Positions 3,019 through 47,982 of a stretch of 64,000 bases of DNA are shown one piece after another (the stretch's first letter is position 1; every line of letters begins with the position of its first letter). Made by a program: the position numbers and the translations under genes. Origin of the DNA: Clostridia bacterium (GTDB taxonomy: Bacteria > Bacillota > Clostridia > Oscillospirales > CAG-272); assembly GCA_017502975.1 (NCBI GenBank), contig JAFVTV010000037.1, forward strand, positions 16,576-80,575, read 5' to 3'. The notes under the pieces were generated by a model that saw only the letters and a list, made by a program, of their open reading frames with translations, was not told where the DNA came from and did not search any database.

Positions 3019-3021
3019 GCG

Positions 3022-6877: not shown

Positions 6878-6886
6878 GCCTGCCTC

Positions 6887-9124: not shown

Positions 9125-9143
9125 TTTTATCCCCTTTAAATAA

Positions 9144-9256: not shown

Positions 9257-9263
9257 AGACCTT

Positions 9264-9944: not shown

Positions 9945-9985
9945 GATGCAGCCTCCTTTTCTTTGATTTCTTTCCTTTACACAGT

Positions 9986-10924: not shown

Positions 10925-10925
10925 A

Positions 10926-28674: not shown

Positions 28675-28678
28675 GGCA

Positions 28679-31467: not shown

Positions 31468-31506
31468 GCAAAAAGGAACCGCCCATTTAAGCGGTTCCTT
31501 TTTTGC
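31468..31506. terminator. Bidirectional terminator
   Basis: gcaaaaaggaaccgc...gcggttccttttttgc. Confidence 0.8.
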
Positions 31507-31700: not shown

Positions 31701-34700
31701 TTACCCCGCCAGAGTAATCTCCGGCAACAAGATCTCATCGCCAAAAATATCGATGGCGAGATCCTCACCCAAATACGGAGACTCCTCAATCTCAGGCTCT
31801 TCAGGCAGAGTGGTGTCGGAGAAGTAGTTGCCACGCCACAAGAGATACCCCGAACCTGTGTATTTGGTAGCAGATTGGTTGGTGGAGAAATCGTACCCAA
31901 CAAAATAACCTGTTCCATAGGAAATGGCAGAGGTTTTAGCCACGTTGGTAAGTCCTGCCAAAAACGCATTTGCCTCGCTTAACACCTCAGCGGCAGTGTT
32001 TGCCTCACCAAGACCGGCAATGCCGTCCTCGGTAAAGGTCATCGTGGGGTTATACCCTTCGCCGCTTGCCAAGGAAAGCGCGCGGCTTGTTAAAATGTAG
32101 CGCCAACGGGTATTTTTAATCATCTCAAGATTTTCAAGCGTGATTCTATCCGTAGAACTGTTCTTGGTCTTGCTTTGCACAGCGGCGGACGTGTTTTGCC
32201 ACAAAATGATCTGCGGATTGATAAGCTGATAAAGCTCTCCCTCACCACCTGTACCGTGATGTGCATTCATCATAATATCGGATTCAAGGTAAGCTCCGTA
32301 GGTAGCGCGCAAAGCTCTTGCGGTACGTGCATAAATATCACCCAGTGACATTGCGCTGATCTTTGAGGCTGCCACGGTATTTGCACTCACGGTATTACCG
32401 TTTTCCACATCGTGTGCATGTACGGTCAAGCGTATCACCGCGCAAGCGTTATTAAAGGCTTGCATTGACCAAGGATGCATATCCTCAGGGGTAAACATGA
32501 CCTCAAATTCAAGATTGCCCACAAAGAATTTTTGACCGGTATGCACATTATAAAAGGGTACGGGATCGTTTGCACCGTTTGAAGTACCTTTAAACCAATT
32601 TTCCGTTCCAAGTCTATTCTGGATATTCAGATTGATAGAATGTGCATTGTAGGCCTCCTCACTCGACGGGAAATTGCCAATGATAGCATCCACAACAAGA
32701 GTAGAGCCAAAATAACTCTTTTTGGAAACAGCATTGAGCAGACCCACGTGATCAGCGTGTCCGTGCGTGAGATACCATGCGGAAATACGGATAGGAGCTG
32801 CTTCTGTGGGGTTCTTGCCGTATATTCCTTTATAAAGCGCCTTTAATACATTGGCGAAATTTGTAACCTCAGCCGATGTACCGTTGCCGCCGTCAACCAC
32901 AACAAAGGAACCATCCTCAAGTGTATAAACATAGCATCCGGCTGAGCCAAGCTGCACCACGGTAAGCTTGGAATCAGTCACCTTTTGGTAAGACTGCTTG
33001 GTAAGGAAGTTTTGAGGCAGAATATGGTTTATATAAGAAACACTATCGGTTATTCTCGAGGAAATGACGCGCAGCGTCGGTCTGAACATTTCACCGAGTT
33101 TAGTGTCTTCACTCAGTTCCTGATTATATGCATGCTTATAAGCATGATACATAACATGGAGCATGATGCCCTCTCCATTGTTTGCCGTGCGATTCACATA
33201 CGTCACAAAGCAACTACCCTCAACAAAGCGCTCCTCCATATATACGGTATATCCGTTTTGTTGTAGCTTTTTGCAGTAAAAATAGTAATCGGCAAATACT
33301 GCATCAAGATAGTACAACTGGAGTTCACCGTTAGATACATTTACTGCACCCGAGAGCGCAAGATCATCAGGACGAGGATACGCGGTAATAAACTGCCCGA
33401 CATCTTCGGCAACATTACTCGCTCCTGTAGCACCCTCTACGCTATCAAAAGCACCCGTAAATCCGTTGCTGTTGCCTCTTTCAAACTCGTATTCGGCAGG
33501 AATGGCATATACATCTATCGCTGCATCGCCATTGAGATCCAAAGCATAATCGCCAAGATCGGCTAGGAAAAGGCTCTTCGCGAGGCGCAGCGTGGTATCA
33601 TCATACGAGGTAATCACAACGTTACCGTCCTTTATGAAATAGCCGTAATATCCTACGTCCTTTTCGCCCGCAAGCAAAAGCTCACGCGCAAGATCGGTAA
33701 GGCCAACGTGAATCGCGCCCCCATTCATGGCAAAGCTATCCGGAACATAGGCGAAATTAAACCCTGCGTTAAAGCCACCGCCCATAAGTGCCGCGCCAAT
33801 CTCCATTGCCGCATACAAGGGATAATCAAGACCAATATTGTCATTGTTTGCATCATTGTTATACAAATGATTGCCGCTGCTGTTGAAGCCTTGCCCTTCG
33901 TAATGCTCCCCGGTGATGCTATAAAGGCTTAAGAAAATATTGTAAGCGCGCATATCACGTGTGTGGGGGTAAACAATGGGCGTTTCTAAGTTGAGAATCG
34001 TCATTTCCACGTTGGAAGCAACGATCTCTGTAAGATCGAACGCGGCGCCGTTTGCCACTTTGCAGATCTCCTCAAATACGTTAAGCGCGCACATGGCAAG
34101 CGCCTCATTACTGCCTGCGATCACAATATTCTCACCAACCACACCAATGTAATAGCCGCAGCCCTCTACTTCAGCAAGTGCCTGCTTTACAGTGTTACCC
34201 GTACTGCCAACCAAAATGGGCATGCCTGTGCTGCCATACCCATAATTTTCAAGTGCTTGCACGAGAGATGTTGCCTTGTTTTGCAGATTGGTGCCAACCG
34301 TACCGTCAAAGGAAACAGCAGTGGCAGGAATCACACCTGTAGTAGTGGAAAGCGTGTGCGTATAGCTGCTGCATTGACGCAAAAGCTCCTGCTCTTGCGT
34401 GGTATATGCGCTATATGCGCCCGCCTTATAAAGCGATGGATATCCCGACTCGACCGTGCTTGTATATGCCTTTTTGGCAACACTTGCCATAGTATGTGCA
34501 TTTTTCGCCACATCATAAGTGCTATAATAATACGTACCGTCTACAAGCACGTAAGAAACCGCAGCATAAGCGCGCTCACAACTGCTAAGCTGTATCAATC
34601 CCCCGTTAAAGCTAATGCTTCCGCTTTCCGGGTCTTGTACAATACTTTCGCTTGCCGAAATATCCACATAAGGAATTTCAATATTGGCAGAAGCATTCCA

Positions 34701-36521
34701 GCCATTCAAAGCGGCGTGGGTAAAACCACCTGCTGCCGCAACATATTCTGCAGGTGCAATCAGCGTGCCAAAGGTATAGTCTTCACCATAGACGTATCCC
34801 ATTTGAGTCAAGGCATCCACAACTGAGCCCGGAATGGTAGATTTGAAAAGGATGCCCGGCTGGGAATCTACAATTGTGACAAATGCACCGTCAACCATAA
34901 CGGGAGAATACGTGGTGTCGGCATTCTCTTCATAGGCTTGATAACAATAATAGTTCAAACCGTTGTATTGAACCGTTACGGTGTTTTGAACAAACGGAAC
35001 ATCCTCACCAATGGCATCGTTCCTATCTATTACATAGGTTTTGATGTAGCGAGAAAGCAGCACTGCATCAGTAATCACGACCTCGGAATTACCAACACTT
35101 ACATCAACAAGCGGAGAAACACCGACACTCTCATTTATGAATACACCGCCACTAAGTAAAATATCCACGTCACAAAGAAAGTACATTTTAGTGGGATCTT
35201 CATAATTATCAGCATTCAGCTCATCAACATCAACGCCAACCGAAGTGCGCAGCAGCACGCCACCGCTTATTCCAGTGCTTTCCTCAATTTTAAATGTGCC
35301 GCCCGTAATTTCAAAGTAATCTCCCTTGTCCTTTCTCAGCGCAACATCAAACAAAGCATTGCCCTGCGTGGTAAAGGTACCGCCACTCACACAAATATTA
35401 CCTGCACAAGCGTAAAATAGCGCATTGGAAGCATTAGCTGCCCCTGTAAAAATACCGTTGGTAATGGACACGGGAATTGCACATTTGACAGTTAACACGC
35501 GCCCTGCGTTGGCAACGTGAAACGTGCCACCCTCAACTGTTAGACTTGCCCCGCTATCGGCAAACAACGCTACACCCTTATTTTGAATGTCAAAGATACC
35601 GCCTTCAACAGTTAAGGTATCGTCAACTCCATTCAAATAGACCGCAGCACCACCATCAGAGAGGACCGTAAAGCTACCCCCTTCGATTACAATATCAGTA
35701 GCAGTAACCAATTTTTGGTTCACAATATCCGCCGAGCCGATAAAGCTACCGCCTGTAACGGTAAGCGTGCCGGATCGCATATCTATTATCGTGTCTACGT
35801 GACAGGAGAACGTACCGCCCGTGATCTTAACCGAAGCACTACCGCTGTTCCCGTAAACCACAGCAAAGCTCTTGCTGGAATCATCCCTATTATCTAAAAT
35901 AAAATTACCGCCGTTTATTTCAAGATAGGTCGATCCTCGATTTACGTAAAACAAATATTCTTCTGCCGCAGCGGTATTTCTGTTAAAAGTACCGTTGTTG
36001 ATATAAATGTTTGAGCCTGCTAAATAAGAACTGCCTGCTGCTCCGATAGCACCGTAAAAGGTGCCGCCATTGACGTTAAGCGTTGCAAACCCCTGCACAC
36101 CGATGGCAAGCCCACTTCTTGAAGCGCTGCCACTTGAACTGATCATTGTGCCACTCTCAACCGTTAGCTCTGTGTTTTGGTATTTTACCATAACAGCGGT
36201 TGTTTGAAGAGCGGTTATAGAAATATCGCGAAGTGTGACCTCGCCCGCCTCAATAACCAGTCCGCCCGCTGTAAACGTAACAGTGACACCGGAGCTGCCG
36301 CAAAGCGTATAGGCTTTATCCGCATTAAGGATAAGATCCTCAGAAAGTTCTATGCTTGCAGTCACCATAACGGTGTCGCCGTCGACAACACTGCCGATGG
36401 CGTTTTGGAGTTCTGCCTGTGTGCCTACCTCATGCACCGTGGCGGACGCTGCAACAGCAGTTATCACAAGCATCAGAACCACCAAAAACAAAAACAAGAT
36501 CAAGCGTGTTTGTTTTTTCAT
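31701..36521 (-). CDS. Large secreted modular protein, paralog 1: beta-helix-like repeats + MBL-fold (ComEC/Pce-like) hydrolase
   Basis: Signal peptide MKKQ...AVAASA; many I.GG.F repeats; VDGG, WYLTHGHADH, NN, LGD, AHHG MBL motifs; PE-rich linker and FGDEILLPEI tail; ATG 36521 with AAGGAG RBS. Confidence 0.8.
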   Translation of the reverse strand: MKKQTRLILFLFLVVLMLVITAVAASATVHEVGTQAELQNAIGSVVDGDTVMVTASIELSEDLILNADKAYTLCGSSGVTVTFTAGGLVIEAGEVTLRDISITALQTTAVMVKYQNTELTVESGTMISSSGSASRSGLAIGVQGFATLNVNGGTFYGAIGAAGSSYLAGSNIYINNGTFNRNTAAAEEYLFYVNRGSTYLEINGGNFILDNRDDSSKSFAVVYGNSGSASVKITGGTFSCHVDTIIDMRSGTLTVTGGSFIGSADIVNQKLVTATDIVIEGGSFTVLSDGGAAVYLNGVDDTLTVEGGIFDIQNKGVALFADSGASLTVEGGTFHVANAGRVLTVKCAIPVSITNGIFTGAANASNALFYACAGNICVSGGTFTTQGNALFDVALRKDKGDYFEITGGTFKIEESTGISGGVLLRTSVGVDVDELNADNYEDPTKMYFLCDVDILLSGGVFINESVGVSPLVDVSVGNSEVVITDAVLLSRYIKTYVIDRNDAIGEDVPFVQNTVTVQYNGLNYYCYQAYEENADTTYSPVMVDGAFVTIVDSQPGILFKSTIPGSVVDALTQMGYVYGEDYTFGTLIAPAEYVAAAGGFTHAALNGWNASANIEIPYVDISASESIVQDPESGSISFNGGLIQLSSCERAYAAVSYVLVDGTYYYSTYDVAKNAHTMASVAKKAYTSTVESGYPSLYKAGAYSAYTTQEQELLRQCSSYTHTLSTTTGVIPATAVSFDGTVGTNLQNKATSLVQALENYGYGSTGMPILVGSTGNTVKQALAEVEGCGYYIGVVGENIVIAGSNEALAMCALNVFEEICKVANGAAFDLTEIVASNVEMTILNLETPIVYPHTRDMRAYNIFLSLYSITGEHYEGQGFNSSGNHLYNNDANNDNIGLDYPLYAAMEIGAALMGGGFNAGFNFAYVPDSFAMNGGAIHVGLTDLARELLLAGEKDVGYYGYFIKDGNVVITSYDDTTLRLAKSLFLADLGDYALDLNGDAAIDVYAIPAEYEFERGNSNGFTGAFDSVEGATGASNVAEDVGQFITAYPRPDDLALSGAVNVSNGELQLYYLDAVFADYYFYCKKLQQNGYTVYMEERFVEGSCFVTYVNRTANNGEGIMLHVMYHAYKHAYNQELSEDTKLGEMFRPTLRVISSRITDSVSYINHILPQNFLTKQSYQKVTDSKLTVVQLGSAGCYVYTLEDGSFVVVDGGNGTSAEVTNFANVLKALYKGIYGKNPTEAAPIRISAWYLTHGHADHVGLLNAVSKKSYFGSTLVVDAIIGNFPSSEEAYNAHSINLNIQNRLGTENWFKGTSNGANDPVPFYNVHTGQKFFVGNLEFEVMFTPEDMHPWSMQAFNNACAVIRLTVHAHDVENGNTVSANTVAASKISAMSLGDIYARTARALRATYGAYLESDIMMNAHHGTGGEGELYQLINPQIILWQNTSAAVQSKTKNSSTDRITLENLEMIKNTRWRYILTSRALSLASGEGYNPTMTFTEDGIAGLGEANTAAEVLSEANAFLAGLTNVAKTSAISYGTGYFVGYDFSTNQSATKYTGSGYLLWRGNYFSDTTLPEEPEIEESPYLGEDLAIDIFGDEILLPEITLAG

Positions 36522-36580
36522 ACCTCTGTTCTCCTTTTCCATAATTTTAAACTTTAGCACTCTAATGGTGCCATATGGAA

Positions 36581-36640
36581 ATTATACCATTATTTTCCAT
36601 TCGTGTCAATTCGTATGTGAATTTTCTCTGTTTTAACCAA
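36581..36640 (-). promoter_or_regulatory. SigmaA promoter plus conserved upstream box of paralog 1
   Basis: TTGACA(36609-04)-17-TATAAT(36586-81); box TTGGTTAAAACAGAGAAAATT at 36640-36620. Confidence 0.75.
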
Positions 36641-36745
36641 TTTTTACCATTTAATTGGGCTTGTTTTCCGATGCACTTTGATTTTTCTCTTGTTACCCTT
36701 CATCTATTTATATACTGATGTTTTTATCAAGTTGTCATTTTAAAC

Positions 36746-36790
36746 AAAAAAACACCCGCCGATATCTGTCTTAGACAAATATCGGCGGGT
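36746..36790 (-). terminator. Rho-independent terminator
   Basis: acccgccgatat...atatcggcgggt followed by a U7 tract on the minus strand. Confidence 0.8.
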
Positions 36791-36795
36791 TGAAA

Positions 36796-37302
36796 TTATT
36801 TGGCGAGCAATATTTCTCGCATGCAAGTATAAAACACATCGTATGCGGTAAGGTCTTTAGGTTCAAAGTAAAAGGCAGTACCGTCGGCATAAAAGTAGAT
36901 CGCGCTTTCAGTAAAATACAGCGACTCGTACTCCCCTGCCACGGTTCTTATTTGCCACTTGGTATCCCATGCACCCTCAAGCATGGCAATATTATCCTTA
37001 TTGGTAAATCCTGCCTCATCTACGACTGAAAGCTTTTCTCGAAGTAAGCTTACCTCCTCGCCCGTGAGCATGACCTGCACACCGCGATCGGCAATCGTAC
37101 CTTGTGACTCCATAAGGGGATCGGAAAGGAGCATACGCTCATATTCAGCCGTTAAAAAAAGCTCTACACGCTCTTGAAAAATTTTTTTCTCACGCAGCTG
37201 CGGCATAAATATAGTAAAAAATATAATGATCAGGGCAAGCGTGAGTATTATAATACCCACTACTGTAACACCAACATTTTTACTTTTAAGCTTTATTGAC
37301 AT
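36796..37302 (-). CDS. Hypothetical protein with N-terminal membrane anchor
   Basis: 168 aa ORF; GGGGTG RBS; own TTGACT-17-TATACT promoter at 37360-37332. Confidence 0.65.
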   Translation of the reverse strand: MSIKLKSKNVGVTVVGIIILTLALIIIFFTIFMPQLREKKIFQERVELFLTAEYERMLLSDPLMESQGTIADRGVQVMLTGEEVSLLREKLSVVDEAGFTNKDNIAMLEGAWDTKWQIRTVAGEYESLYFTESAIYFYADGTAFYFEPKDLTAYDVFYTCMREILLAK

Positions 37303-37356
37303 ACCGTCACCCCATTTTTAATGCTTCATATAGTATAGCACGGCATGATGGCAAAG

Positions 37357-38760
37357 TCAAGATTGCTTTTTTCGCCTCACAAAAAGCGAGAGGAGCGCCT
37401 TGGGGGAAAATGGGATGAGTGGGTAAAGATAACTGTGTTCGCCGTTTACGGTCTTATTGGATACAATTAAGACAATGATCAAAAAGACACCTATCACAAA
37501 TCCCCATATATTGAAAAACGCCGTAAGCGTAAGCAGCAGAATACGCATAAATTTAAGTGCATAACCGAGTTCAAAGCTTGTCTGAGTGAAGTTGGCGATC
37601 GCAACAAATGCCATATACAAAATTACCTCGGGAATAAGCCACCCTACGTCAACCGCAAAATCCCCCAGAATCAAGCCGCCTACCACCGACAAGGAATTTG
37701 CAAGCATATCGGGAGTATTCATTGAAGCCATGCGCAACCCGTCAATGACAAATTCCGCAAGCAGCAGCTGCAAATAGATCGGTAGCTTTCCCCTGTTTTC
37801 GGGCAATGCAAAGGAGAGCCATTCAGGCACATATTGCGGATTGAGCACACCAAGAAACCAAATGGGCGTCATAAACAGTGTAAGCCAAAACACAGCATGT
37901 CGCACGGCGCGCAGATACGTACCGGTTAAAGGTGGCAAATAAAAGTCGCTGCTTTCCTGTAAAAAATCAAAAATTGCGGTGGGCAGGATCATGGCGGCAG
38001 GCGAATTATCGATCAGCACAATGACACTTCCCTCCAAAAGGTGCGCCGAGGCAACGTCGGGGCGCTCGGTATAACGAATTTTGGGAAAGGGGTTGTACCA
38101 CCGCGATCTGATCAGTGTTTCGGCAAGCGATTCGTGCCCCATGGTCAGCGCGTCTGTCTGAATGGTTGAAATTTTATCCTTGATATATTTTACAAGCTTT
38201 GGATCGGCACGATCCTGCATGTAGCAGATCACAATATCGCTTTTTGACGCTTTGCCCATGCTTGTATAGTGCATAGTGAGTGCTACGTCGCGAATGCGGC
38301 GACGGATCAGCGCCGTGTTAAATACCAGCGTTTCCACAAAGCCGTCGCGCGGACCGCGCATAACACGGTCATTTTCAGGCTCTGCCGTTTCGCGCGCGGG
38401 ATACGTGCGCGCATCAATCACAAGCCCCTCTGAGCCAAACGTGCTGCCAAACAGCACGGTGGCACCCGAAAGGATCATTTGAAACATCAATTCCGCGCTG
38501 CTTGTTACGTCACACTCGACATACGGCATATTACTTTCCAAAAATGCTGTAGCATCACGGGGTAATTCCTTTAAAGATAACAGATAGATGAAAAGTTTTT
38601 GCATAGCACCGTCCTTAATAAGACCGTCTACATAAAACAGGGTTATCTCGTCCTGCCCTATCTTTAGCACCTTTTTGATAATGTCAAAATTTTCTTTAAC
38701 GCGGAGCGTTTTTTCAAATAGCTTTACGTTTTCTTGATAATTTTCTTTTAGCCTTTGCAT
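37357..38760 (-). CDS. GerA-family spore germination protein (SpoVAF-like)
   Basis: RGPRDGFVETL..NTALIRRRIRD, YTERPD, GGLILGDFAV. Confidence 0.88.
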   Translation of the reverse strand: MQRLKENYQENVKLFEKTLRVKENFDIIKKVLKIGQDEITLFYVDGLIKDGAMQKLFIYLLSLKELPRDATAFLESNMPYVECDVTSSAELMFQMILSGATVLFGSTFGSEGLVIDARTYPARETAEPENDRVMRGPRDGFVETLVFNTALIRRRIRDVALTMHYTSMGKASKSDIVICYMQDRADPKLVKYIKDKISTIQTDALTMGHESLAETLIRSRWYNPFPKIRYTERPDVASAHLLEGSVIVLIDNSPAAMILPTAIFDFLQESSDFYLPPLTGTYLRAVRHAVFWLTLFMTPIWFLGVLNPQYVPEWLSFALPENRGKLPIYLQLLLAEFVIDGLRMASMNTPDMLANSLSVVGGLILGDFAVDVGWLIPEVILYMAFVAIANFTQTSFELGYALKFMRILLLTLTAFFNIWGFVIGVFLIIVLIVSNKTVNGEHSYLYPLIPFSPKALLSLFVRRKKQS

Positions 38761-38785
38761 TGTTTCCCCTCCCTCTTGTTCAAGA

Positions 38786-38815
38786 TAGTATGTACAAATT
38801 CAACTCATGTATGTA
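38786..38815 (-). promoter_or_regulatory. Putative forespore sigmaG-type promoter
   Basis: TACATA-17bp-CATACTA upstream of the spoVAF-like gene. Confidence 0.5.
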
Positions 38816-38846
38816 AAAAAGCACCCTTGCGGGTGCTTTTTTACAT
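38811..38846 (-). terminator. Terminator of paralog 2
   Basis: atgtaaaaaagcaccc-ttgc-gggtgcttttttacat. Confidence 0.85.
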
Positions 38847-38898
38847 TGGTTAAATTTTTAGATGATGTGGAATTTCTCTATTGTAAGATTCCACGAGA

Positions 38899-41800
38899 TC
38901 AATTAATTTCCGGCAACAAGATCTCATCGCCAAAAACATCGATAGTGTAATCCAAACCGTCAATCACCGGCAGTTCGGGCTGCTCGGGTTCGGGTTCCGG
39001 TTCGGGTTCGGGCTGCTCGGGCAGGGTGGTATCGGAGAAGAAATTGCCGCGCCACAAGAGATATCCTTCGCCACTGTATACTTTACTTGTTTGCTGTCCG
39101 GTAGAGAAGTCCAACCCAAACGGCGTTTTCGAGGTTTGCCCAATAAAATAACCTGTTCCGTAGGAGAAGGCGTCTGTGCTACCCGGATTTGTAAGGCCGT
39201 TCAGAAATTCAGTTGCCTCTCTTAACACCTCTTCAGGAGTGCTTGCCTTACCAAGACCCGCAACACCGCTTGCAGCAAAGGTGATTGTGGGATTATACGT
39301 TCCACTGCTTAGTCTGTAGCCTGATATGATGTAGCGCCAACTGATGTTTTTGATTGCATCATAGTTTTCATGCTTATATTTTTTCGAACTTGTGTTTGAG
39401 ATTTGACCTGCAACCTCAGCAGCATTATTTTGCCACAGAATAATTTGGGGATTGATAAGCTCATAAAGCTCTCCCTCGCCACCAGATCCGTGATGCCCAT
39501 TTGTCATGATATCGGATTCAAGATAGCTGCCGTAGGCGGCGCGCATCATTCTTGCTGTGCGTGCGTAAATATCACCAAGCGACATCAAGCTCACCTTGGA
39601 GGATGCAACGGCATTGGCGCTGACTGTACCACCAACTTGCATGTTGTGTGCATGCGTTGTTAAGCGAATGACCGTGCAGGCATTGTTAAAGGCAATCGTT
39701 GACCAAGGGTGCATATCCTCGGGCGTGAACATAACCTCAAATTCAAGGTTTGCCACAAAGAATTTTTGACCGGTGTGCACGTTATAATAGGGTACGGGAT
39801 CGCTAGCCCCCTTTGAGGTGCCCTTAAACCAGTTGGAGGTGCCAATATAGTTTCGTAGAGTATTGCTAACAGAGGGCGCATTGTAGATCTCATCGTTTGA
39901 GGGGAAATTTGTAATAATGGCATCCAGCACAACGGTATTACCAAAATAAGAGGAAAATCCTGACAACAGGCCCCAATGGTCACCGTGTCCGTGCGTGAGA
40001 TACCATGCCGCAATACGGATGGGACTGCTGGATGTGGGATTGCTGCCATATACTTCCTTATAAAGCGCTTTTAGTACATTGTAGAATTCCGAAACATTTG
40101 CGTTACTTGCACCGTCTATGATAACAAAGGAGCCATCCTCCAGCGTGTAGACGTAGCAGCCCTTTCCATCGTATGGACGCTCTACCACGGTAAGCTTGGA
40201 ATCTGTAACCTTTGTATAAGACTGCTTGGTAAGGAATTTTTCGGGGAGAATATGATTTACATAAGAAACACTGTCGGTTATCGTAGAGGAGATTACGCGC
40301 AGAGTAGGTGTAAACATATCAGCCAGCGTTGTAGTACTACCTTCGCTAAGAAACTGCGTAGAAGCGTGCTTGTACGCGTTATACATGATGTGAAGCATAA
40401 TACCGTTGCCATTGTTGGCGGTGCGGTTCACAAGCGTTATAAAATAGCTGTCCTCAACCGCGCGCTCTTCCATATATACGGTATATCCGCTGTCCTTCAG
40501 TTTATTTACATAGCGCGTGTAATCTTCAACCGTTGCGTCAAGATAGTAAAGTTGAAGCTCTCCATTGGATACGTTTACAGCACCCGAGAGTGCAAGCTCA
40601 TCGGGTCTGGGATAATTGGTAATAAGCTGCTTTACATCACTTGCCACATTGCCCGTGCCTGTAGCGTCTGAAACGCTGTCAAATGCATCTGTAAAGCCGT
40701 TGTTATAGCCATTTTCAAACTCGAAATCAGCAGGGATAGCATAAACGTCTGCCGTACCGTCACCGTTTACGTCCAGGGCGTAATCATCAAGGCTTTCAAG
40801 GAACAGGCTCTTTGCCAAGCGCAACGTAGCATCATCATAAGAGGTAATCACAACGTTGCCGTCCTTTATGAAGTAGCCGTAATATCCTACGTCCTTACCA
40901 CTCGCCAGCAAAAGCTCGCGTGCAAGATCGGTAAGACCAATATGAATCGCACTGCCGCTCACAACAAAGCTATCCGGCACATAAATGCAGTTATAGCCGG
41001 AGGTCGCTAACTGATCACCGATCTGCTTTGCCACAAACAAGGGGGCATCCACAAGGATATATTCATTTGCCTCGAGATTGTACAAATGCGTGCCCGAATA
41101 TCTGAATTTGATCGATGAAAAGGCATCTTCATGCTTAAGCGATCCGTCATTAAACTGAGGCAACAGGTTATAGGCATTGGCATCACGCGTGTGAGAATAT
41201 ACAAAGGGAGTTTCCCAGTTAAGCGTAACCATTTGCACGTTGGAGGCAACGATCTCGGTGAGATCAAACGCGGCGCCATTTGCCGCCTTGCAAATTCCCT
41301 CAAACACAGAAAGTGCCTGCATGGTAAGTGCATCGTTACTGCCTGCGATTACAATCTGCTCGCCGATTACACCGATATAGTAGCCGTAGCCCTCTACCTT
41401 TGCAAGGGCTTGCTTTACGGCGGCATTCGTAGCGCCCTTGCCACCGATCAAAATTTGATGTGTGCCGGAACCGGAGCCATAGGTTGCAAAGAAATCAATC
41501 GCCTTGCTTTGCAGATTAGTACCCGCTGTACCGCTAAAATTAACGGTTTTAACAGGAATAACACCTTCAGCAACGGTTAAAGGCTGACAATTGCCATACT
41601 CACGCAAAAGCGCTTGATCTTGTGTATTGTACGGGCTGAATGCGCCGGGCATATACTCTGATCTGTGCGGATAATCCTCACTTAACACAGACGAGCAATC
41701 CTTATACGCCATTTGAGAAACGAGTGCCATGGTACGCGCGTTTTGCGTCACATCGTAGGCGCTGTAATAATACGTACCGTCTACACACACGTAAGCTACT

Positions 41801-42900
41801 GCGGCATACGCACGCTCACAGCTATTTAAATATATCAATCCGCCGTTAAAATCAATGCTGCCATCCTGCTGATATATAATGCTATTTTGAGCGGGAATAT
41901 CAACATAACACGGTGAAGCTCCCGCCCCTTCTCCCCATGTTTTAAGGTTAGCGTGTGTAAAGCTACCTGCAGCCGCAACGTAATCGGCAGGCGCGATCAG
42001 CGTACCAAAGGTATAGCTCTTTTGCGCCAGAGCAGTTACGACCGAGCTCGGAATGGTAGAGTAAAACAAAAGACCCGGCTGGTTATCGACAAGGGCAACC
42101 GAGGCGCCCTCATCCATAACGGGCGCATACGCAGTGTTGCCATTTCCCCCATAGACTTTATAGCAATAATAATTGCTGCCATTATATTGAACGACAACAG
42201 TGTTGTTGGCAAACGGAATATCCTCACCGACAGCATTGTTGACATCCACGATATAGTTTTTAACATTGCGAGAAAGAAAAACTACATTGCCAATCACCAC
42301 CTTGGAATTACTTGCAGAAGCATCAATCAGCTGAGAGGTGGTTGCGCGATGATCGATAAACATGCCGCCCGAAAGCTTAATATCTACGTCATTAAGGTAA
42401 AGAACCTTGGTGGGATCGGCATAATTCCCTTCATTTATCTCATCAGTCACACCAACACGCGTGCGTAAAATCGCGCCGCCGTTGTCGCCGCTAGCCACTG
42501 CCTCCATGATATACGCACCGCCCGTGATCGTAAAGCCATCACCATTAGCCTTACTCAGCGCAATATCAAACAAAACATTGCTCTTGGCAATAAAGGTGCC
42601 ACCGCTGAAGGTTACGTTGCCCGCATTGATCAAAAAACTGCCGGACGTGAGTGTAACGGTTACATCCGAAGAACTGCCGCGCAAGGTATAGGTTGCGTTT
42701 TGGCTAAACGTGATATCACCAGAAACAGACATGCTTGCGGTTACAACAATTTCATCACCGTTTTTAACCTTGCTCAGTGCGCTTTCAAGTTCTGCCTTCG
42801 TATCTACCTGATACGTTGTAGCAGATGCCGCAACGGCGGTTACCGTAAGCAGCAAAGCTACCAAAAAAGCAAACAAAATAAAACGTATTTGTTTTTTCAT
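38899..42900 (-). CDS. Large secreted modular MBL-fold protein, paralog 2 (short beta-helix region)
   Basis: Same architecture as paralog 1; WYLTHGHGDH, NGHHG; ends DYTIDVFGDEILLPEIN; ATG 42900. Confidence 0.8.
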   Translation of the reverse strand: MKKQIRFILFAFLVALLLTVTAVAASATTYQVDTKAELESALSKVKNGDEIVVTASMSVSGDITFSQNATYTLRGSSSDVTVTLTSGSFLINAGNVTFSGGTFIAKSNVLFDIALSKANGDGFTITGGAYIMEAVASGDNGGAILRTRVGVTDEINEGNYADPTKVLYLNDVDIKLSGGMFIDHRATTSQLIDASASNSKVVIGNVVFLSRNVKNYIVDVNNAVGEDIPFANNTVVVQYNGSNYYCYKVYGGNGNTAYAPVMDEGASVALVDNQPGLLFYSTIPSSVVTALAQKSYTFGTLIAPADYVAAAGSFTHANLKTWGEGAGASPCYVDIPAQNSIIYQQDGSIDFNGGLIYLNSCERAYAAVAYVCVDGTYYYSAYDVTQNARTMALVSQMAYKDCSSVLSEDYPHRSEYMPGAFSPYNTQDQALLREYGNCQPLTVAEGVIPVKTVNFSGTAGTNLQSKAIDFFATYGSGSGTHQILIGGKGATNAAVKQALAKVEGYGYYIGVIGEQIVIAGSNDALTMQALSVFEGICKAANGAAFDLTEIVASNVQMVTLNWETPFVYSHTRDANAYNLLPQFNDGSLKHEDAFSSIKFRYSGTHLYNLEANEYILVDAPLFVAKQIGDQLATSGYNCIYVPDSFVVSGSAIHIGLTDLARELLLASGKDVGYYGYFIKDGNVVITSYDDATLRLAKSLFLESLDDYALDVNGDGTADVYAIPADFEFENGYNNGFTDAFDSVSDATGTGNVASDVKQLITNYPRPDELALSGAVNVSNGELQLYYLDATVEDYTRYVNKLKDSGYTVYMEERAVEDSYFITLVNRTANNGNGIMLHIMYNAYKHASTQFLSEGSTTTLADMFTPTLRVISSTITDSVSYVNHILPEKFLTKQSYTKVTDSKLTVVERPYDGKGCYVYTLEDGSFVIIDGASNANVSEFYNVLKALYKEVYGSNPTSSSPIRIAAWYLTHGHGDHWGLLSGFSSYFGNTVVLDAIITNFPSNDEIYNAPSVSNTLRNYIGTSNWFKGTSKGASDPVPYYNVHTGQKFFVANLEFEVMFTPEDMHPWSTIAFNNACTVIRLTTHAHNMQVGGTVSANAVASSKVSLMSLGDIYARTARMMRAAYGSYLESDIMTNGHHGSGGEGELYELINPQIILWQNNAAEVAGQISNTSSKKYKHENYDAIKNISWRYIISGYRLSSGTYNPTITFAASGVAGLGKASTPEEVLREATEFLNGLTNPGSTDAFSYGTGYFIGQTSKTPFGLDFSTGQQTSKVYSGEGYLLWRGNFFSDTTLPEQPEPEPEPEPEQPELPVIDGLDYTIDVFGDEILLPEIN

Positions 42901-42951
42901 ATTCACTCTCTCCTTTATAAAAAGATTGGGAGTAACACTTTCCATGATACC

Positions 42952-43012
42952 ATTATATCAATCTTTGTAATCTGTGTCAACCTTTTGAAAATAATTTCTA
43001 CTTTTCAACCAA
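42952..43012 (-). promoter_or_regulatory. SigmaA promoter plus conserved upstream box of paralog 2
   Basis: TTGACA(42980-75)-17-TATAAT(42957-52); box TTGGTTGAAAAGTAGAAATT at 43012-42993. Confidence 0.75.
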
Positions 43013-43089
43013 AGCTAAAGCAAAGAAAAAACGGAGGCGTTCCCTTCCTTTCGCTTGTTCAAAATAGCGTACTGCTACTGTGTATATGT

Positions 43090-43121
43090 GTAAAAAAGCA
43101 CCCCTGCGGGTGCTTTTTTAC
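43090..43121 (-). terminator. Terminator of paralog 3 (near-identical to 38811-38846)
   Basis: gtaaaaaagcaccc-ctgc-gggtgcttttttac. Confidence 0.85.
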
Positions 43122-43177
43122 TTTGGTTAAATTTTTAGATAACGTAGAAATATCCTCTGTTTTCAGTTTCCACAAAA

Positions 43178-46100
43178 TCATTTGATTTCCGGCAACAAGA
43201 TCTCATCGCCAAAAACATCGATAGTGTAATCCAAACCGTCAATCACCGGCAGTTCGGGCTGCTCGGGCTGTTCGGGCTGCTCGGGTTCGGGCTGCTCCGG
43301 CTCGGGTTGCTCCGGCAGTGTGGTATCAGAAAAGTAGTTGCCACGCCACAAAAGATATCCTTCACCACTGTATGCGGTTGCGCTCTTGTTGGTGAAGAAG
43401 TCATACGAAACATAGTAACCGGTTCCATAAGAGATCGTGGAGCTGCTGTTTATATTTTGAAGTCCTTCCACAAACGCCTGTGCCTGCTTGCGCACCTCTT
43501 CATCGGTGGTTGCCTTGCCAAGACCGGCAACACCGTTTGCGCCAAATGTAATCGTAGGATTATACGTTCCACTACTTAACCTGTAGCCGGATATAATATA
43601 GCGCCAACGGGTGTTTTTGATCATCTCGAGATTCTCGCTGGTATTTCTATCCGTGGCACTGCTCGAAGTCTTGCTCTTCACACCGGAAGCCTTATTTTGC
43701 CACAAAATGATTTGGGGATTAATGAGCTGATAAAGCTCACCCTCGCCGCCCGTACCGTGATGCCCATTCGTCATGATATCGGATTCAAGATAACTGCCAT
43801 AAGCTGCACGCATCATTCTTGCCGAGCGTGCGTAAATATCACCAAGCGACATTAGGCTTACCTTAGAGGATGCAACGGCATTGGCGCTAACAGTACCACC
43901 CACTTGCACGTTATGTGCATGCGTCGTTAAGCGAATGACCGTGCAGGCATTGTTAAATGCTGCTGTTGACCAGGGGTGCATATCCTCAGGTGTAAACATA
44001 ACCTCAAATTCAAGGTTGCCAATATAGAATTTTTGACCCGTGTGCACGTTATAGAAGGGCACGGGATCACTAGTCCCATTTGAAGTGCCCTTGTACCAGC
44101 TGGATGTGCCGATCCAGTTGCGTATGGTATTGTTAACGGAGGGCGCATTGTAGATCTCATCGTTTGAGGGGAAATTCGAGATAATGGCATCCAATACAAC
44201 CGGATAAGAACTGCTACTCAAATATGAGGAAAAACCGTTTAACAACCCAGAATGGTCACCGTGGGTGTGTGTGAGATACCACGCTGCTATGCGAATGGGC
44301 TTGCTTGACGTGGGATTGCTGCCATATATTCCTTTATAAAGCACCTTTAGTACATTGTAAAATTCCGAAACATTTTTGTTGCTTGCGCCGTCTATGATAA
44401 CAAAGGAGCCGTCCTCAAGCGTATAAATGTAACAACCCTTTCCATCATATGGACGCTCTACCACGGTAAGCTTGGAATCTGTAACCTTTGTATAAGACTG
44501 CTTGGTAAGGAACTTTTGAGGCAAGATATGATTTACATAGGAAACACTGTCTGTTATTTTTGAGGAAATGACGCGCAATGTGGGAGTAAACATATCAGAC
44601 AGCATAGTAGTACTATCATCGCCAAAGACCTGTGTGGAAGCGTGCTTGTAAGCGTTATACATGATGTGAAGCATAATACCGTTTCCATTGTTGGCATTGC
44701 GGTTTACAAGCGTCACAAAGTAACTGCCCTCTACCTCACGCTCTGCCATATATACGGTATACCCACTTTGCTTCAGCTTGCTGAAGTAGCGCGTGTAATC
44801 ATCAAGCGTTGCATCAAGATAGTAAAGCTCAATCTCGCCGTTGGATACGTTTACCGCACCCGAAAGTGCAAGGTCATCAGGGCGAGGATAGTTGGTAATA
44901 AGCTGCTTGACTTCATCGGCAACATTACCTGTTCCGGTTGCACCGGAAACACTATCAAAGGCACCTGTAAAGCCATTATTATAGCCTTTCTCAAACTCAT
45001 AATCCGAAGGGATGGCATATACGTCAGCCGTTCCGTCGCCATTTACATCCAAAGCATAGTCAGCAAGGTCGTCAAGGAATACCTTCTTTGCAAGGCGCAG
45101 AGTCGCGTCGTCATACGAGGTAATAACCACATTGCCATCCTTTACAAAATAGCCGTAATAGCCTACATCTTTCCCTCCCGCAAGCAGAAGCTCGCGTGCA
45201 AGAGAGGTAAGACCGATATGAATGGCGCTGTCACTTATAGCAAAGCTATCCGGCACATAGACACCGTTATATTCGGACCCTGTAAGCGTTTTAGAGATCT
45301 CCATTGCCAAAAACAGCGGGGCATCGACAAGGGTCCATTCGTTTGCCTCAAGATTGTACAAATGTTTACCGGAGGAAGCGAATTTAATCGATGAAAACGC
45401 ATCGTCATGCTTAGCAGTTGAGGTAATATACTGAGGCAACAAGTTATAAGCTCCTGCATAACGCGTGTGCGAATATACAAACGGAGTTTCCACATTCAGC
45501 GTGGTCATCTGCACGTTAGAAACAATAATCTCGGTAAGATCAAACGCAGCGCCGTTTGCCGCTTTGCAAATTGCCTCAAATGCGTCAAGTGCCTGCATAA
45601 TGAGCGCATCGTTACTGCCGGCAATCACGATCTTATTATCCATCACGCCGATATAGTAACCAAAGCCCTCTACCTCGGCAAGCGCCTTCTTTACGGTAGA
45701 GCCCTTACTACCCACCAAAACAGAGGTGCCGGAGGAGCCATAGCCATAGCTTGCAAGCGTTTGCGCAAGGGCTGTTGCCTTGTTTTGCAGATTTGCTCCC
45801 GCCGTACCGTCAAAGGAAACTGCGGCAGCAGGCTTAACACCTTGCGCAGTGGTCAGCGTGTGCGTATAGCTACTGTATTGGCGCAAAAGCTCCTGCTCTG
45901 CCACGCTGTATTCGCTATACGCACCGGAAATATACGTTGATGCATACAGATAATCTTCGGTTTGTATCAGTGAAAAATCCCTATAGGCATCCTTGGAGAT
46001 CTGCGCCATGGTACGCGCATTCTCCGTTACAGTATAGCTGCTGTAATAATACGTGCCATCAACGCACACGTAGGACACTGCGGCATATGAACGCTCACAG

Positions 46101-47872
46101 CTGTTTAAGTATATCAAGCCGCCGTTAAAGTAAATACTGCCGTCCGGTTGACGTATAATACTGTTTTGTGCAGGAATATCTGCATAATATGTTGCAACAC
46201 CTGCCTTTTCGCCCCAAGTCTTGAGCTTGGCGTGCGTAAAGCCACCGGCTGCCGCAACGTAATCGGCAGGCGCAATAAGCGTACCAAAGGTATAGCTCTT
46301 CTGTGCCAAAGCAGTCACAACAGTGCTCGGAACAGTAGAGAAAAACAAAAGTCCCGGCTTATCATCCACAAGAGCAACGGAGGCACCCTCAAGCATAATG
46401 GGAGAATAGGTCGTATCGCCTTCTTGATAGAATTTGCAGCAATAATAATTAGCGCCGTTATATTTAACAATTACGGTGTTGTTTGCAAATGGGATGTCCT
46501 CACCTGACGCACTGTTTTCATTATTGATATCCACCATATAATTCTTGGCATAACGGGAAAGCAGCGCCGCATTGCCAAGCACCACCTTCGATTTGCTGGC
46601 TGAAGCATCAATAAGCGGCGAAGTGGTGGCGCGTTGGTCAATAAGGAAACCGCCCGAAAGCTTGATATCCACGTCAGTCAGATAATACATCTTTGCGGGA
46701 TCGGCATAGCTTGCCTGCTCGTTCACCTCAAAGGTTACGCCAACACGCGTGCGCAGGATCACGCCGCCCCTATAACCGCTCATAAGCTCCTCAAGTATAT
46801 AAGTACCGCCGGTGATCTCAAAGCTATCCCCTGCCTGCTTACTGAGCGCGATATCAAACATAACTCTACCCTTGGTTGTAAAGGTGCCGCCGCTAAAGGT
46901 AAATTTGCCTGCCGTGGCATAGACCAAAGGGGTGGGGGCGCCCACAACAGTCCCCTTAAACGTACCGCCCGAAACGATTACCGCACCGCTTGGAGAAGCT
47001 TCTCTGGTTTTATAATAATAGATCAGCGCGCAGTTGCCCGCTTCACTTGCGGTAGAGGTAAAGGTGCCACCGGAAATATTCAGTTGATTGCAGCGATCGA
47101 TACGAACGCCTGTGGTTAAATTATTAAAGGTACCACCGGTGATCGTGACAACAGAATTTGTGCTGCTTGAATCTAAAAAGAGCACCGCACACTCGTAGGG
47201 TGCATCATTGTCGCGGGTAAAAGTACCACCGTTTATGGTAATTTTACCGCCGTTACTGTTTGAGCACAAAAGGTGCGCTTTTTGATCCATAGCAGACACT
47301 AAGGTCGTATTTTGATAAAAAGCTCCTCCGTCGATCGTAAGATCGCATAGATTTGCGGCACGATTTGAACCATAAAAGGTGCCGCTTTTAATGGTGAGCT
47401 TGCCCTTCTCAAGCAAGAAAGCACAACCGGTTGAAGTGTTAGAAGTACCGTTCGCAGAGCCCTTTGACTCAATGTACGTGCTTGCATTGTTGCCACCCGC
47501 TTCACCAATGGTAACAGTTGCCGCAGAATTCTTAATTACGATAGCGCTATTCGTGCTTGATATCACACGAATGTTTTTTATCGTAACATTGCCGGTGGTG
47601 ATCTTAAGGCTACCAGACGTCAAAGTAACGGTAACACTTGATGAACTGCCACGCAACGTGTAGGTTACGTTTCTGCTAAACGCAACGTCACCGGAAACCG
47701 ACATGCTTGCGGTCACCACAATTTCATCACCGCTGTTAACAGCAGACAAAGCGCTTTCAAGCTCCGCCTCGGTATCCACCTCACGGACCGTAGCTGATGC
47801 CGCAACGGCGGTTACCGTAAGCAGCAAGGCTACCAAAAAAGCAAACAAAATAAAACGTATTTGTTTTTTCAT
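43178..47872 (-). CDS. Large secreted modular MBL-fold protein, paralog 3
   Basis: Same architecture; WYLTHTHGDH, NGHHG; ends DYTIDVFGDEILLPEIK; ATG 47872 (or 47878). Confidence 0.8.
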   Translation of the reverse strand: MKKQIRFILFAFLVALLLTVTAVAASATVREVDTEAELESALSAVNSGDEIVVTASMSVSGDVAFSRNVTYTLRGSSSSVTVTLTSGSLKITTGNVTIKNIRVISSTNSAIVIKNSAATVTIGEAGGNNASTYIESKGSANGTSNTSTGCAFLLEKGKLTIKSGTFYGSNRAANLCDLTIDGGAFYQNTTLVSAMDQKAHLLCSNSNGGKITINGGTFTRDNDAPYECAVLFLDSSSTNSVVTITGGTFNNLTTGVRIDRCNQLNISGGTFTSTASEAGNCALIYYYKTREASPSGAVIVSGGTFKGTVVGAPTPLVYATAGKFTFSGGTFTTKGRVMFDIALSKQAGDSFEITGGTYILEELMSGYRGGVILRTRVGVTFEVNEQASYADPAKMYYLTDVDIKLSGGFLIDQRATTSPLIDASASKSKVVLGNAALLSRYAKNYMVDINNENSASGEDIPFANNTVIVKYNGANYYCCKFYQEGDTTYSPIMLEGASVALVDDKPGLLFFSTVPSTVVTALAQKSYTFGTLIAPADYVAAAGGFTHAKLKTWGEKAGVATYYADIPAQNSIIRQPDGSIYFNGGLIYLNSCERSYAAVSYVCVDGTYYYSSYTVTENARTMAQISKDAYRDFSLIQTEDYLYASTYISGAYSEYSVAEQELLRQYSSYTHTLTTAQGVKPAAAVSFDGTAGANLQNKATALAQTLASYGYGSSGTSVLVGSKGSTVKKALAEVEGFGYYIGVMDNKIVIAGSNDALIMQALDAFEAICKAANGAAFDLTEIIVSNVQMTTLNVETPFVYSHTRYAGAYNLLPQYITSTAKHDDAFSSIKFASSGKHLYNLEANEWTLVDAPLFLAMEISKTLTGSEYNGVYVPDSFAISDSAIHIGLTSLARELLLAGGKDVGYYGYFVKDGNVVITSYDDATLRLAKKVFLDDLADYALDVNGDGTADVYAIPSDYEFEKGYNNGFTGAFDSVSGATGTGNVADEVKQLITNYPRPDDLALSGAVNVSNGEIELYYLDATLDDYTRYFSKLKQSGYTVYMAEREVEGSYFVTLVNRNANNGNGIMLHIMYNAYKHASTQVFGDDSTTMLSDMFTPTLRVISSKITDSVSYVNHILPQKFLTKQSYTKVTDSKLTVVERPYDGKGCYIYTLEDGSFVIIDGASNKNVSEFYNVLKVLYKGIYGSNPTSSKPIRIAAWYLTHTHGDHSGLLNGFSSYLSSSSYPVVLDAIISNFPSNDEIYNAPSVNNTIRNWIGTSSWYKGTSNGTSDPVPFYNVHTGQKFYIGNLEFEVMFTPEDMHPWSTAAFNNACTVIRLTTHAHNVQVGGTVSANAVASSKVSLMSLGDIYARSARMMRAAYGSYLESDIMTNGHHGTGGEGELYQLINPQIILWQNKASGVKSKTSSSATDRNTSENLEMIKNTRWRYIISGYRLSSGTYNPTITFGANGVAGLGKATTDEEVRKQAQAFVEGLQNINSSSTISYGTGYYVSYDFFTNKSATAYSGEGYLLWRGNYFSDTTLPEQPEPEQPEPEQPEQPEQPELPVIDGLDYTIDVFGDEILLPEIK
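43249..43318 (-). repeat. Coding tandem repeat (PEQ/PE linker); shorter counterpart at about 38970-39024
   Basis: Repeated tcgggctgc/tcgggt units encoding PEQPEPEQPEPEQPEQPEQPE versus PEQPEPEPEPEQPE. Confidence 0.75.
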
Positions 47873-47921
47873 ATTCATTCTCCTTTATGCAGGATTAAAA
47901 AGCAGACACCTATATTACTTT

Positions 47922-47982
47922 AGTATAACATTCTTCACAATTTCTGTCAACAAGCTACATTTAATTTCTCTGTTTTCACCAA
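47922..47982 (-). promoter_or_regulatory. SigmaA promoter plus conserved upstream box of paralog 3
   Basis: TTGACA(47950-45)-17-TATACT(47927-22); box TTGGTGAAAACAGAGAAATT at 47982-47963. Confidence 0.75.

Follow-up and report, generated by a model that had tools for sequence, protein, structure and literature searches.

What do three giant, co-oriented genes in the genome of a Clostridia bacterium encode, and do their products belong to any known enzyme system? The DNA analyzed, called the window below, is a stretch of 64,000 nucleotides from contig JAFVTV010000037.1 (assembly GCA_017502975.1). The genes, designated A, B, and C here, lie in three minus-strand open reading frames (ORFs) at 31701..36560 (1619 aa), 38899..42945 (1348 aa), and 43178..47878 (1566 aa), respectively. 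A preliminary description of the window had reported them as co-oriented giant paralogs with a metallo-beta-lactamase (MBL) domain. The three genes are indeed all on the minus strand, and their products (lengths in Table 1) align from end to end. Every motif claimed in that description is present, i.e., AVAASA in the signal peptide, the run of GGxF repeats, GLLF/FGTLIAP/YAAV.YV, two GYY..IVI modules, H.H.DH/NN/GD/HHG in the MBL domain, the Pro/Glu linker, and FGDEILLPEI in the tail.

From their sequences, the products are very probably active MBL-fold hydrolases that work outside the cell. As for their function, we favor with modest confidence displayed extracellular phosphodiesterases with a binuclear metal site that act on a polymer, a glycopolymer being preferred to DNA.

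Fold and conserved residues of the MBL domain

Paralog B was used for structure prediction, and its residue numbers are those of P0002. Two AlphaFold models were built on a 107-row alignment. Model 1 covers residues 455–1310 (predicted local distance difference test score (pLDDT) 92.2, predicted template modeling score (pTM) 0.92), and model 2 covers residues 44–915 (pLDDT 92.8, pTM 0.91). Model 1 gave 195 matches in the PDB at E ≤ 0.001, and the best 50 are all MBL-fold proteins. The top match is ComEC's beta-lactamase-like domain (9ic4, E 1.7e-9) with a target template modeling score (TM-score) of 0.62, followed by Pce (2bib, E 2.5e-9; 1wra, E 6.4e-8) with target TM-scores of 0.57–0.58. YhfI, the MBL-type arylsulfatase 8gyg (ranks 9–10), ElaC/RNase Z proteins, and subclass B3 lactamases appear lower in the list. 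These best matches, together with the pLDDT of the model, agree with the assignment to the ComEC/Pce subgroup made in the preliminary description. The HxHxDH region is modeled as an MBL fold with conserved metal-ligand residues.

The conservation of these residues is almost complete. Among the 107 aligned relatives, no variation is seen at H985, H990, N1087, D1125, H1151, and H1152, and at least 90% of them retain H987, D989, and H1057. In an alignment of 67 MBL-only sequences, D944, H985, H987, D989, H990, N1087, D1125, H1151, and H1152 are all invariant.

Sequence similarity to known MBL families is much less evident than the fold. At full length, A and B score 22.4 and 21.5 bits, respectively, with the Pfam model Lactamase_B (PF00753; cut-off 22.7 bits), and C gives no match. 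The MBL domain of B alone scores 23.7 bits, and 54 of the 67 family MBL domains match the model at E ≤ 0.01. In a comparison of the MBL-only profile with the PDB, the alkyl/aryl-sulfatase YjcS is matched at E 2.6e-4 over the half containing HxHxDH (positions 76–179), and another profile also matches YjcS (E 2.2e-3). ComEC and Rec2 are matched at E 2.9e-3 and 3.2e-3, respectively, over motifs III–V, where fN.tS...lGD...HHG of the family is aligned with GNNAS...SGD...HHGS of Rec2/ComEC. The match with Pce is marginal (E 0.12). Based on the predicted fold and the motifs, the domain is a member of the MBL superfamily at the edge of the Pfam model. It can be regarded as a hybrid, because motif II is the canonical HxHxDH as in Pce while motif III has Asn as in ComEC. 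The net charge of the MBL domain ranges from −20 to 0 in the 67 members, with a median of −9.

Comparison with known systems

The nuclease domain of ComEC is a Mn-dependent endonuclease and 5′-3′ exonuclease with H598, D600, D602, H603, and D700 as the Mn ligands (PMC12455585). Asp replaces one of the His residues of motif II and Asn replaces the motif III His in ComEC, whereas Pce has an all-histidine motif II and a motif III His (PMC8579336). Pce is described as the closest structural homologue of the ComEC nuclease domain (PMC8579336, PMC12455585).

The window proteins resemble ComEC in that it is the best structural match, motifs III–V (N..S, GD, HHG) align, and both are located outside the cytoplasmic membrane. 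However, motif II is HxHxDH in the window proteins but H.D.DH in ComEC. The membrane channel and the OB fold of ComEC are absent (none was found in Pfam and NCBIfam scans), and the MBL domain is placed behind two GH20b-like domains and one alpha/beta domain in an acidic protein predicted to be soluble and secreted or a lipoprotein. Pce (CbpE), the teichoic acid phosphorylcholine esterase of Streptococcus pneumoniae and the second-best structural match, is likewise a secreted Gram-positive MBL-fold enzyme of the phosphodiesterase type, and its motif II is also all-His (PMC8579336). In contrast, motif III of the window proteins has Asn in place of the His reported for Pce, and the accessory domains are entirely different. 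No choline-binding repeats such as those of Pce were found among the Pfam matches at E ≤ 1 in the window proteins.

Other known systems share single parts of the architecture. The MBL alkyl/aryl-sulfatases (YjcS, 4pdx; 8gyg) have the common MBL fold and provide the best PDB sequence match, but this match is confined to the HxHxDH region, whereas the C-terminal motifs of the window proteins are ComEC-like. Neither the SCP2-like domain nor the dimerization domain of class III sulfatases was found in the Pfam scan. The N-terminal alpha/beta domain of glycoside hydrolase (GH) family 84 O-GlcNAcases and GH20 hexosaminidases (BT_4395, NagJ, and Vibrio harveyi GH20) may have counterparts here, as suggested by both profile and Foldseek comparisons. 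However, the domain is duplicated in the window proteins and joined to an MBL domain instead of a glycoside-hydrolase barrel, and the scores are below the family cut-offs. Pertactin (1dab/2iou) and Chlam_PMP proteins have repeated GGxF coils, a similarity at the level of a lead, but the autotransporter barrel of pertactin-type passengers is absent here and the host is Gram-positive. Overall, the proteins most likely work like MBL phosphodiesterases of the ComEC-domain or Pce type, yet belong to neither family.

Proposed function and its alternatives

Each gene, transcribed from its own strong housekeeping-type promoter, would provide a strongly acidic multidomain enzyme secreted by the Sec system, and the beta-solenoid stalk would keep this enzyme at a distance from the cell. 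The extracellular location is assigned because the long forms have a signal peptide, recognized by eye, and the short forms described below have a lipobox-like motif. We infer a binuclear metal site, the geometry of which is deduced from the sequence. One metal ion would be bound via H985 and H987 with N1087 at motif III, the other via D989, H990, and H1151-H1152, and D1125 would bridge the two. A metal-bound hydroxide would then attack the phosphodiester. The likeliest substrate would be an extracellular glycopolymer with a phosphodiester-linked substituent or linkage, as teichoic acid is for Pce. A wall polymer, a capsule, and a dietary or host glycan are candidates for this polymer, while DNA is less likely. 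The tail may be a docking or regulatory peptide, which is the weakest point of the proposal.

We lean toward a phospho(di)esterase, since both of the nearest characterized relatives are phosphodiesterases acting on extracellular polymers. The preliminary description had proposed secreted phosphodiesterases or esterases with a polymer as the substrate; this idea is consistent with the fold, the motifs, and these relatives, and is retained here as a proposal. If the proteins are phosphodiesterases, a glycopolymer is a better candidate for the substrate than a nucleic acid, for several reasons, none of which is decisive. The proteins and their MBL domains are very acidic, although this charge argument is only suggestive. 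Many divergent paralogs are found per genome, which we judge to be the pattern of substrate-diversified glycan enzymes. Elsewhere, GH20b-like domains are known to occur only next to catalytic domains active on glycans, and their presence would point to glycans. Finally, sister proteins with the same scaffold carry putative heads of the esterase and phosphodiesterase types, and the window encodes glycan and sugar-acid utilization genes.

Several observations weigh against this proposal. The sequence similarity to any characterized MBL enzyme is weak (2.6e-4 for YjcS, the best), and the assignment of the GH20b-like domains is statistically marginal, with only one Foldseek match of model 2 at E ≤ 0.001. 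Motif III has Asn, as in the ComEC nuclease, which keeps a nuclease under consideration, and the matches with YjcS and the arylsulfatase do the same for a sulfatase. In addition, 36 neighboring genes in nine loci include no functional partner; those with Pfam matches are housekeeping or unrelated genes, and five have no match.

If the MBL domain cut DNA or RNA like the C-terminal domain of ComEC, the proteins would be extracellular nucleases for nucleotide and phosphate scavenging or for the breakdown of extracellular DNA in the gut. The rank of 9ic4 as the best structural match and the alignment with Rec2/ComEC over motifs III–V, including the motif III Asn, fit such an activity. So do the NCBIfam model "ComEC family protein", which is matched below its threshold in two of 15 relatives, and a related stalk protein carrying Exo_endo_phos, a family that includes DNase I-like nucleases. 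We nevertheless consider a nuclease unlikely. The proteins and MBL domains are acidic, the OB fold and the channel domain are absent, up to 10 divergent paralogs per genome would be unusual for a nuclease in our judgment, and the GH20b-like domains point to glycans. Motif II, moreover, is not the H.D.DH of ComEC (PMC12455585, PMC8579336). An MBL-type sulfatase that takes ester-bound sulfate off glycans such as mucin, glycosaminoglycans, or algal polysaccharides would suit the sugar-acid and glycan utilization genes in the window (GH2, UxuA, KduI, and KDPG aldolase). The best PDB sequence match, to the putative alkyl/aryl-sulfatase YjcS in both profiles, and the rank of 8gyg by fold also speak for it. 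However, the YjcS match covers just the generic N-terminal half around HxHxDH, the SCP2-like/dimerization domain is absent from the Pfam results, and the N..S, GD, and HHG motifs align with ComEC, so that a sulfatase appears quite improbable.

The two remaining alternatives assume other roles for the MBL-like core. As structural surface proteins or adhesins, the proteins would use the core as a binding module, not as an enzyme. Their large size, acidity, strong promoters, and beta-helix stalk like those of autotransporter adhesins (pertactin, E 0.02) are compatible with this idea, and the relative P0099 is fused to leucine-rich repeats of the BspA type. However, the metal-binding and catalytic residues are invariant or at least 90% conserved across the 107 and 67 divergent sequences, as expected of an active enzyme, which makes a purely structural role very improbable. 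True beta-lactamases, which would protect against beta-lactam antibiotics, are hardly credible. Subclass B3 enzymes such as L1 are among the fold matches, but they rank below the ComEC domain, Pce, YhfI, the arylsulfatase, and the ElaC homologue, with target TM-scores of 0.40–0.49. The NCBIfam model bla_class_B_core is matched below its threshold in one of 15 relatives (16.6 bits versus 100) and in none of the window proteins, and HHG and N..S are ComEC-type motifs.

A wider version of the preferred proposal can be put forward tentatively, as a possible but doubtful reading. The core would represent a new class of surface enzymes that strip phosphodiester-linked (or sulfate) decorations from glycans. 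There would be dozens of substrate-specific paralogs within a gut Clostridia lineage that is so far uncultured. The giant forms would be part of a modular system for display, with interchangeable heads (MBL, EEP, and SGNH-like) on the stalk and sandwich and the acidic tail docking at the surface.

A large family with long and short forms

The three proteins are not isolated. A search for full-length relatives gave 27 proteins at E ≤ 0.001, which are 37–91% identical and 843–1831 aa long. The nine with a source name originate from metagenome-assembled genomes (MAGs) of Clostridia or Ruminococcaceae/Oscillospiraceae, and the names of the relatives in the sources are "hypothetical protein" or "MBL fold metallo-hydrolase". 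When residues 150–1348 of B were the query of an exhaustive HMMER search, the cluster representatives numbered 1823 at E ≤ 0.001, 1066 at E ≤ 1e-10, and 156 at E ≤ 1e-30. Among the best 150 representatives, most are approximately 770–830 aa long and match B from approximately 490 to 1230. These short forms span the two GYY modules together with the alpha/beta and MBL domains. The core of approximately 740 residues, as delimited by these alignments, defines a large unnamed family, and A, B, and C are its long form.

A lipobox-like motif is present in 72 of 80 short representatives (700–900 aa, starting with Met and an early Lys/Arg) but in none of 33 long forms, and the short forms are predicted to be lipoproteins. 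Most of them end with ..IKK, ..IRK, or ..VKK. A hydrophobic segment and a Lys/Arg run are found at the C terminus of P0154, P0164, P0165, P0111, P0128, and P0148, with KKGCK before the segment in three of them; this segment looks like a membrane anchor or a sorting signal.

A scan of one genome per species gave 254 confirmed matches, and the results on loci given here cover the best 80, which are spread over 62 loci. Each of these loci is from a MAG record labeled Clostridia, Oscillospiraceae, Eubacteriales, Clostridiales, or Lachnospiraceae, and animal gut samples are mentioned in several of the titles; the family is so far confined to uncultured Clostridia. The loci contain 102 ORFs that match the hidden Markov model (HMM) of the core at E ≤ 1e-10, distributed over 32 bins, of which none has more than 10, and the family members are mostly 27–45% identical to the query. 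Many of the genes form tandem arrays of two to five, the neighbors of which include alaS and genes for a Fumble/BadF-type kinase, a HAD hydrolase, NFACT, and a topoisomerase.

The short-form arrays are usually located between alaS, which is on the opposite strand after mraY-ftsW-murG-ftsZ, and the Fumble-kinase/HAD/NFACT/topoisomerase group (L013, L014, L017, L019, L022, L023, L026, L033, L036, and L060). The left end of the window (1–10963) contains murG-ftsW-mraY-murF-murE and a penicillin-binding protein gene on the minus strand. If the gene order is kept, a short-form array may lie just outside the window.

No named family covers these proteins, as the preliminary description had supposed. 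No Pfam or NCBIfam model reached its cut-off on full-length A, B, and C, nor did any NCBIfam model in the 15 relatives scanned. An Atlas search with the core reached nothing beyond "hypothetical protein" clusters of Bacillota with Lactamase_B, and a word-based search from a short form gave at least 120 relatives with generic names only. The architecture of the core was not found described among the papers listed by literature searches, though part of that searching was too loose to be informative. The earlier view of the trio as a candidate undescribed system stands with respect to the architecture, whereas its scope was understated, as the trio is the long form of a very large family.

Accessory domains and the stalk

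The three signal peptides end in AASA, and TAVAASAT is invariant in A, B, and C; the cleavage was judged by eye. No hydrophobic stretch other than the signal peptide was seen in the three proteins. The mature form of B has a pI of 4.6 and a net charge of −62.

In model 2, residues 44–263 of B are a succession of short strands, the only helices being two short ones, and such a region is compatible with a solenoid. The N-terminal parts of A, B, and C contain 14, 3, and 9 occurrences, respectively, of the loose pattern [GNA]G.[FYL]. The profile of the long forms matches pertactin weakly (E 0.02, profile positions 112–390), and the clusters in the Atlas resembling the stalk carry Beta_helix, NosD, Pectate_lyase_5, and Chlam_PMP (scores 0.91–0.94); both are similarities at the level of leads. 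The Foldseek match of the stalk in model 2 with ChiW is also weak (probability 0.21), and no Pfam beta-helix family was found at E ≤ 1 on the window proteins. These observations suggest, as a lead, that the stalk is a right-handed beta-solenoid of variable length. The Foldseek matches of model 2 with viral structures, i.e., tail fibers, tailspikes, and Ig/FN3-like domains, were considered as proof of a beta-helix and set aside, being too weak to establish it.

The beta-sandwich following the stalk has CBM21 of PTG, a starch-binding domain, as the best fold match (probability 1.00, target TM-score 0.53, E 0.012). It is absent from P0019 and P0020 and thus is a separable module.

An hhalign comparison shows that the two GYY modules are homologs of one another (probability 98.2%, E 4.5e-14, 52 columns). 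Module 1 is matched by profile with the N-terminal domain of the GH84 enzyme BT_4395 (residues 69–132; E 8e-4 and 1.6e-3), and the Foldseek list of model 2 is headed by GH20 and GH84 enzymes (GH20 6k35, E 8.5e-4; many GH84 entries with probabilities of 0.82–0.99 and E about 1e-2). Below the thresholds, Glyco_hydro_20b is matched in two of 20 relatives and NAGLU_N in one of 20. A precomputed PF02838 match is found on one of 120 listed relatives but not in the window proteins themselves. The resemblance of the GYY modules to GH20 domain 2, noted in the preliminary description, is thus weakly supported by the profile match, Foldseek, and the sub-threshold Pfam matches.

The alpha/beta domain preceding the MBL domain is unrelated to the GYY modules (hhalign probability ≤ 2%). 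Two of its residues, Y812 and R883, do not vary within the family; they correspond to columns Y358 and R429 of alignment A2. A GH catalytic domain was found neither in the Pfam scan nor in either model. At the C terminus, the tail has the pattern D-x-F-G/D-x-x-I...E-I with a nearly invariant Phe in a 14-row alignment, and a loose form of this pattern is found within the last 30 residues in 20 of 33 long-form proteins.

A scaffold shared with other C-terminal domains

A search with the sandwich alone (residues 270–460 of B) reached beyond the MBL family, to long proteins with a similar signal peptide, a GGxF stalk, and the sandwich but with other C termini. P0179 (2123 aa) has a C-terminal Exo_endo_phos domain (E 5e-11). 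The C-terminal regions of P0181 and P0182 have sub-threshold matches with DUF4886 and a GDS motif, and we take these regions to be putative SGNH-like esterases. P0178 and P0180 stop after the sandwich and are possibly cut by contig ends. Judged from these sequences, the stalk and the sandwich together look like a general carrier for extracellular hydrolase heads.

Relationships among A, B, and C

Over the full length, identity to A is 65% for B and 62% for C. Identity by domain among the three ranges from 45% to 100%, with the minimum in the stalk. In the B–C pair, the MBL domains are 84% identical, and the tail and the signal peptide are 98–100% identical. The N-terminal peptide MKKQ.R...TAVAASAT is common to all three. 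In a quick maximum-likelihood tree based on the C-terminal 900 residues of 34 long-form proteins, A forms its own clade with P0012, P0011, and P0013, and B and C are in the sister clade, suggesting that the split between A and B/C is older than that between B and C. The region downstream of B copies the hairpin region of C at 89% identity, which indicates that the B/C duplication took in the 3′ flank.

Locus L001 of a related bin repeats the arrangement of the window (PFK, giant, giant, GerA, small ORF, giant). In L005–L009 and L031, a single long-form gene is part of the series PFK, GerA, small ORF, giant, transporter. One relative, P0004, is 91% identical to B overall, but its final approximately 150 residues before the linker, compared by eye, nearly match C and not B. 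This pattern suggests recombination or gene conversion between paralogs in the related genome.

Gene boundaries, promoters, and neighboring genes

The coordinates of the features are listed in Table 1. The ATG codon of the common MKKQ peptide, at 36521 (A), 42900 (B), and 47872 (C), is taken as the real start, and a ribosome-binding site of the AAGGAG type precedes each of the three. Among all window ORFs of at least 80 aa, the core HMM matches A, B, and C and nothing else. The near-consensus promoter that the preliminary description assigned to each gene was confirmed in all three cases. These sigma-70-type promoters are located 50–60 nucleotides upstream of their ATG codons and rank as the top three of 43 promoter-like sites in a scan of a 16.9-kb region. 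The hairpin scan that found the terminators of A and C did not itself list the 3′ hairpin region of B.

Table 1 Features of the three genes and of the domains of paralog B in the window
Feature	Position	Strand	Remarks
Paralog A	31701..36521	-	1606 aa; longest stalk, about 14 GGxF coils; core HMM E 1.2e-247
Paralog B	38899..42900	-	1333 aa; shortest stalk, 3 GGxF coils; core HMM E 2.1e-241
Paralog C	43178..47872	-	1564 aa; about 9 GGxF coils; core HMM E 1.9e-237; layout: signal peptide, beta-solenoid, beta-sandwich, core with MBL domain, Pro/Glu linker, acidic tail
Promoter of A	36581..36609	-	TTGACA-17-TATAAT, TG before the -10 hexamer; 12/12 matches
Promoter of B	42952..42980	-	TTGACA-17-TATAAT, TG before the -10 hexamer; 12/12 matches
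Promoter of C	47922..47950	-	TTGACA-17-TATACT, TG before the -10 hexamer; 11/12 matches
Terminator-like hairpin after A	31470..31503	-	15 pairs, then T run
Hairpin region after B	38807..38872	.	repeat D18, 89% identical to 43084-43149 (terminator region of C)
Terminator-like hairpin after C	43090..43121	.	14 pairs, then T run
Signal peptide, B 16-43	42817..42900	-	Sec-type, MKKQIRF...TAVAASA; by eye
N-terminal cap and short beta-solenoid, B 44-275	42121..42816	-	predicted, model 2, block pLDDT 79-98
Beta-sandwich, B 276-455	41581..42120	-	GLLF/FGTLIAP/YAAV.YV motifs; predicted, model 2
First GH20b/GH84-N-like module, B 456-580	41206..41580	-	VEGYGYYIGV..IVIAGSN
Second GH20b-like module, B 681-785	40591..40905	-	DVGYYGYFIKDGNVVITSYDD, then DVNGDG loop
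Alpha/beta domain, B 786-904	40234..40590	-	before the MBL domain; predicted, model 1
MBL domain, B 905-1221	39283..40233	-	D944, H985, H987, D989, H990, N1087, D1125, H1151, H1152
Small C-terminal domain, B 1222-1303	39037..39282	-	ends GYLLWRGNFF; predicted, model 1, block pLDDT 73-97
Pro/Glu linker and acidic tail, B 1304-1348	38902..39036	-	..IDVFGDEILLPEIN

Two other minus-strand genes are located between A and B. One is a spore-germination gene of the GerA family at 37357..38760 (Pfam GerA, E 3e-133), and the other, at 36796..37302, encodes a 168-aa protein with one N-terminal hydrophobic segment and no match in Pfam or NCBIfam. Relatives of the 168-aa protein (45–87% identical) are encoded upstream of a long-form gene in seven related loci, where they are preceded by an ORF of the size of GerA; this identification is by size only, the Pfam scan having covered the GerA gene of the window. 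The pair was considered as functional partners of the giant proteins, but is read as inherited gene order, with its own terminator at 36790..36754 and a separate promoter for A.

A 555-aa ORF (50288–51955, minus strand) is directly upstream of short-chain dehydrogenase/reductase and KduI/IolB genes and adjoins an AraC regulator gene. It has no match in Pfam or NCBIfam, and its product may be a sugar-acid pathway enzyme that lacks annotation. A tandem pair of paralogous esterase genes (27577–29770, minus strand), encoding proteins of 365 and 363 aa, each with GxDLY and Lipase_GDSL_3, is located just past the neighbors of A, which are genes for a uracil-DNA glycosylase and a Mem_trans transporter. 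An aspartate aminotransferase (Pfam Asp_aminotransf) is split over two adjacent minus-strand ORFs at 22893–24172, with 23555..24172 corresponding to profile positions 1–198 and 22893..23558 to positions 201–418. The split is presumably a frameshift, a pseudogene, or an assembly error.

Significance

The catalytic fold of A, B, and C is familiar, but their architecture is undescribed and the family is large. Its carriers are so far only metagenome bins, where these proteins have been annotated as hypothetical. The core is a clean target for biochemistry, being compact and confidently modeled with invariant catalytic residues. If the proteins turn out to be ordinary nucleases, they would represent a new architecture for a known activity. 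A reusable stalk-and-sandwich scaffold for display in Gram-positive bacteria is also indicated. If, on the other hand, they are phosphodiesterases or sulfatases acting on glycopolymers, a large unannotated family would be added to the glycan-processing repertoire of gut Firmicutes.

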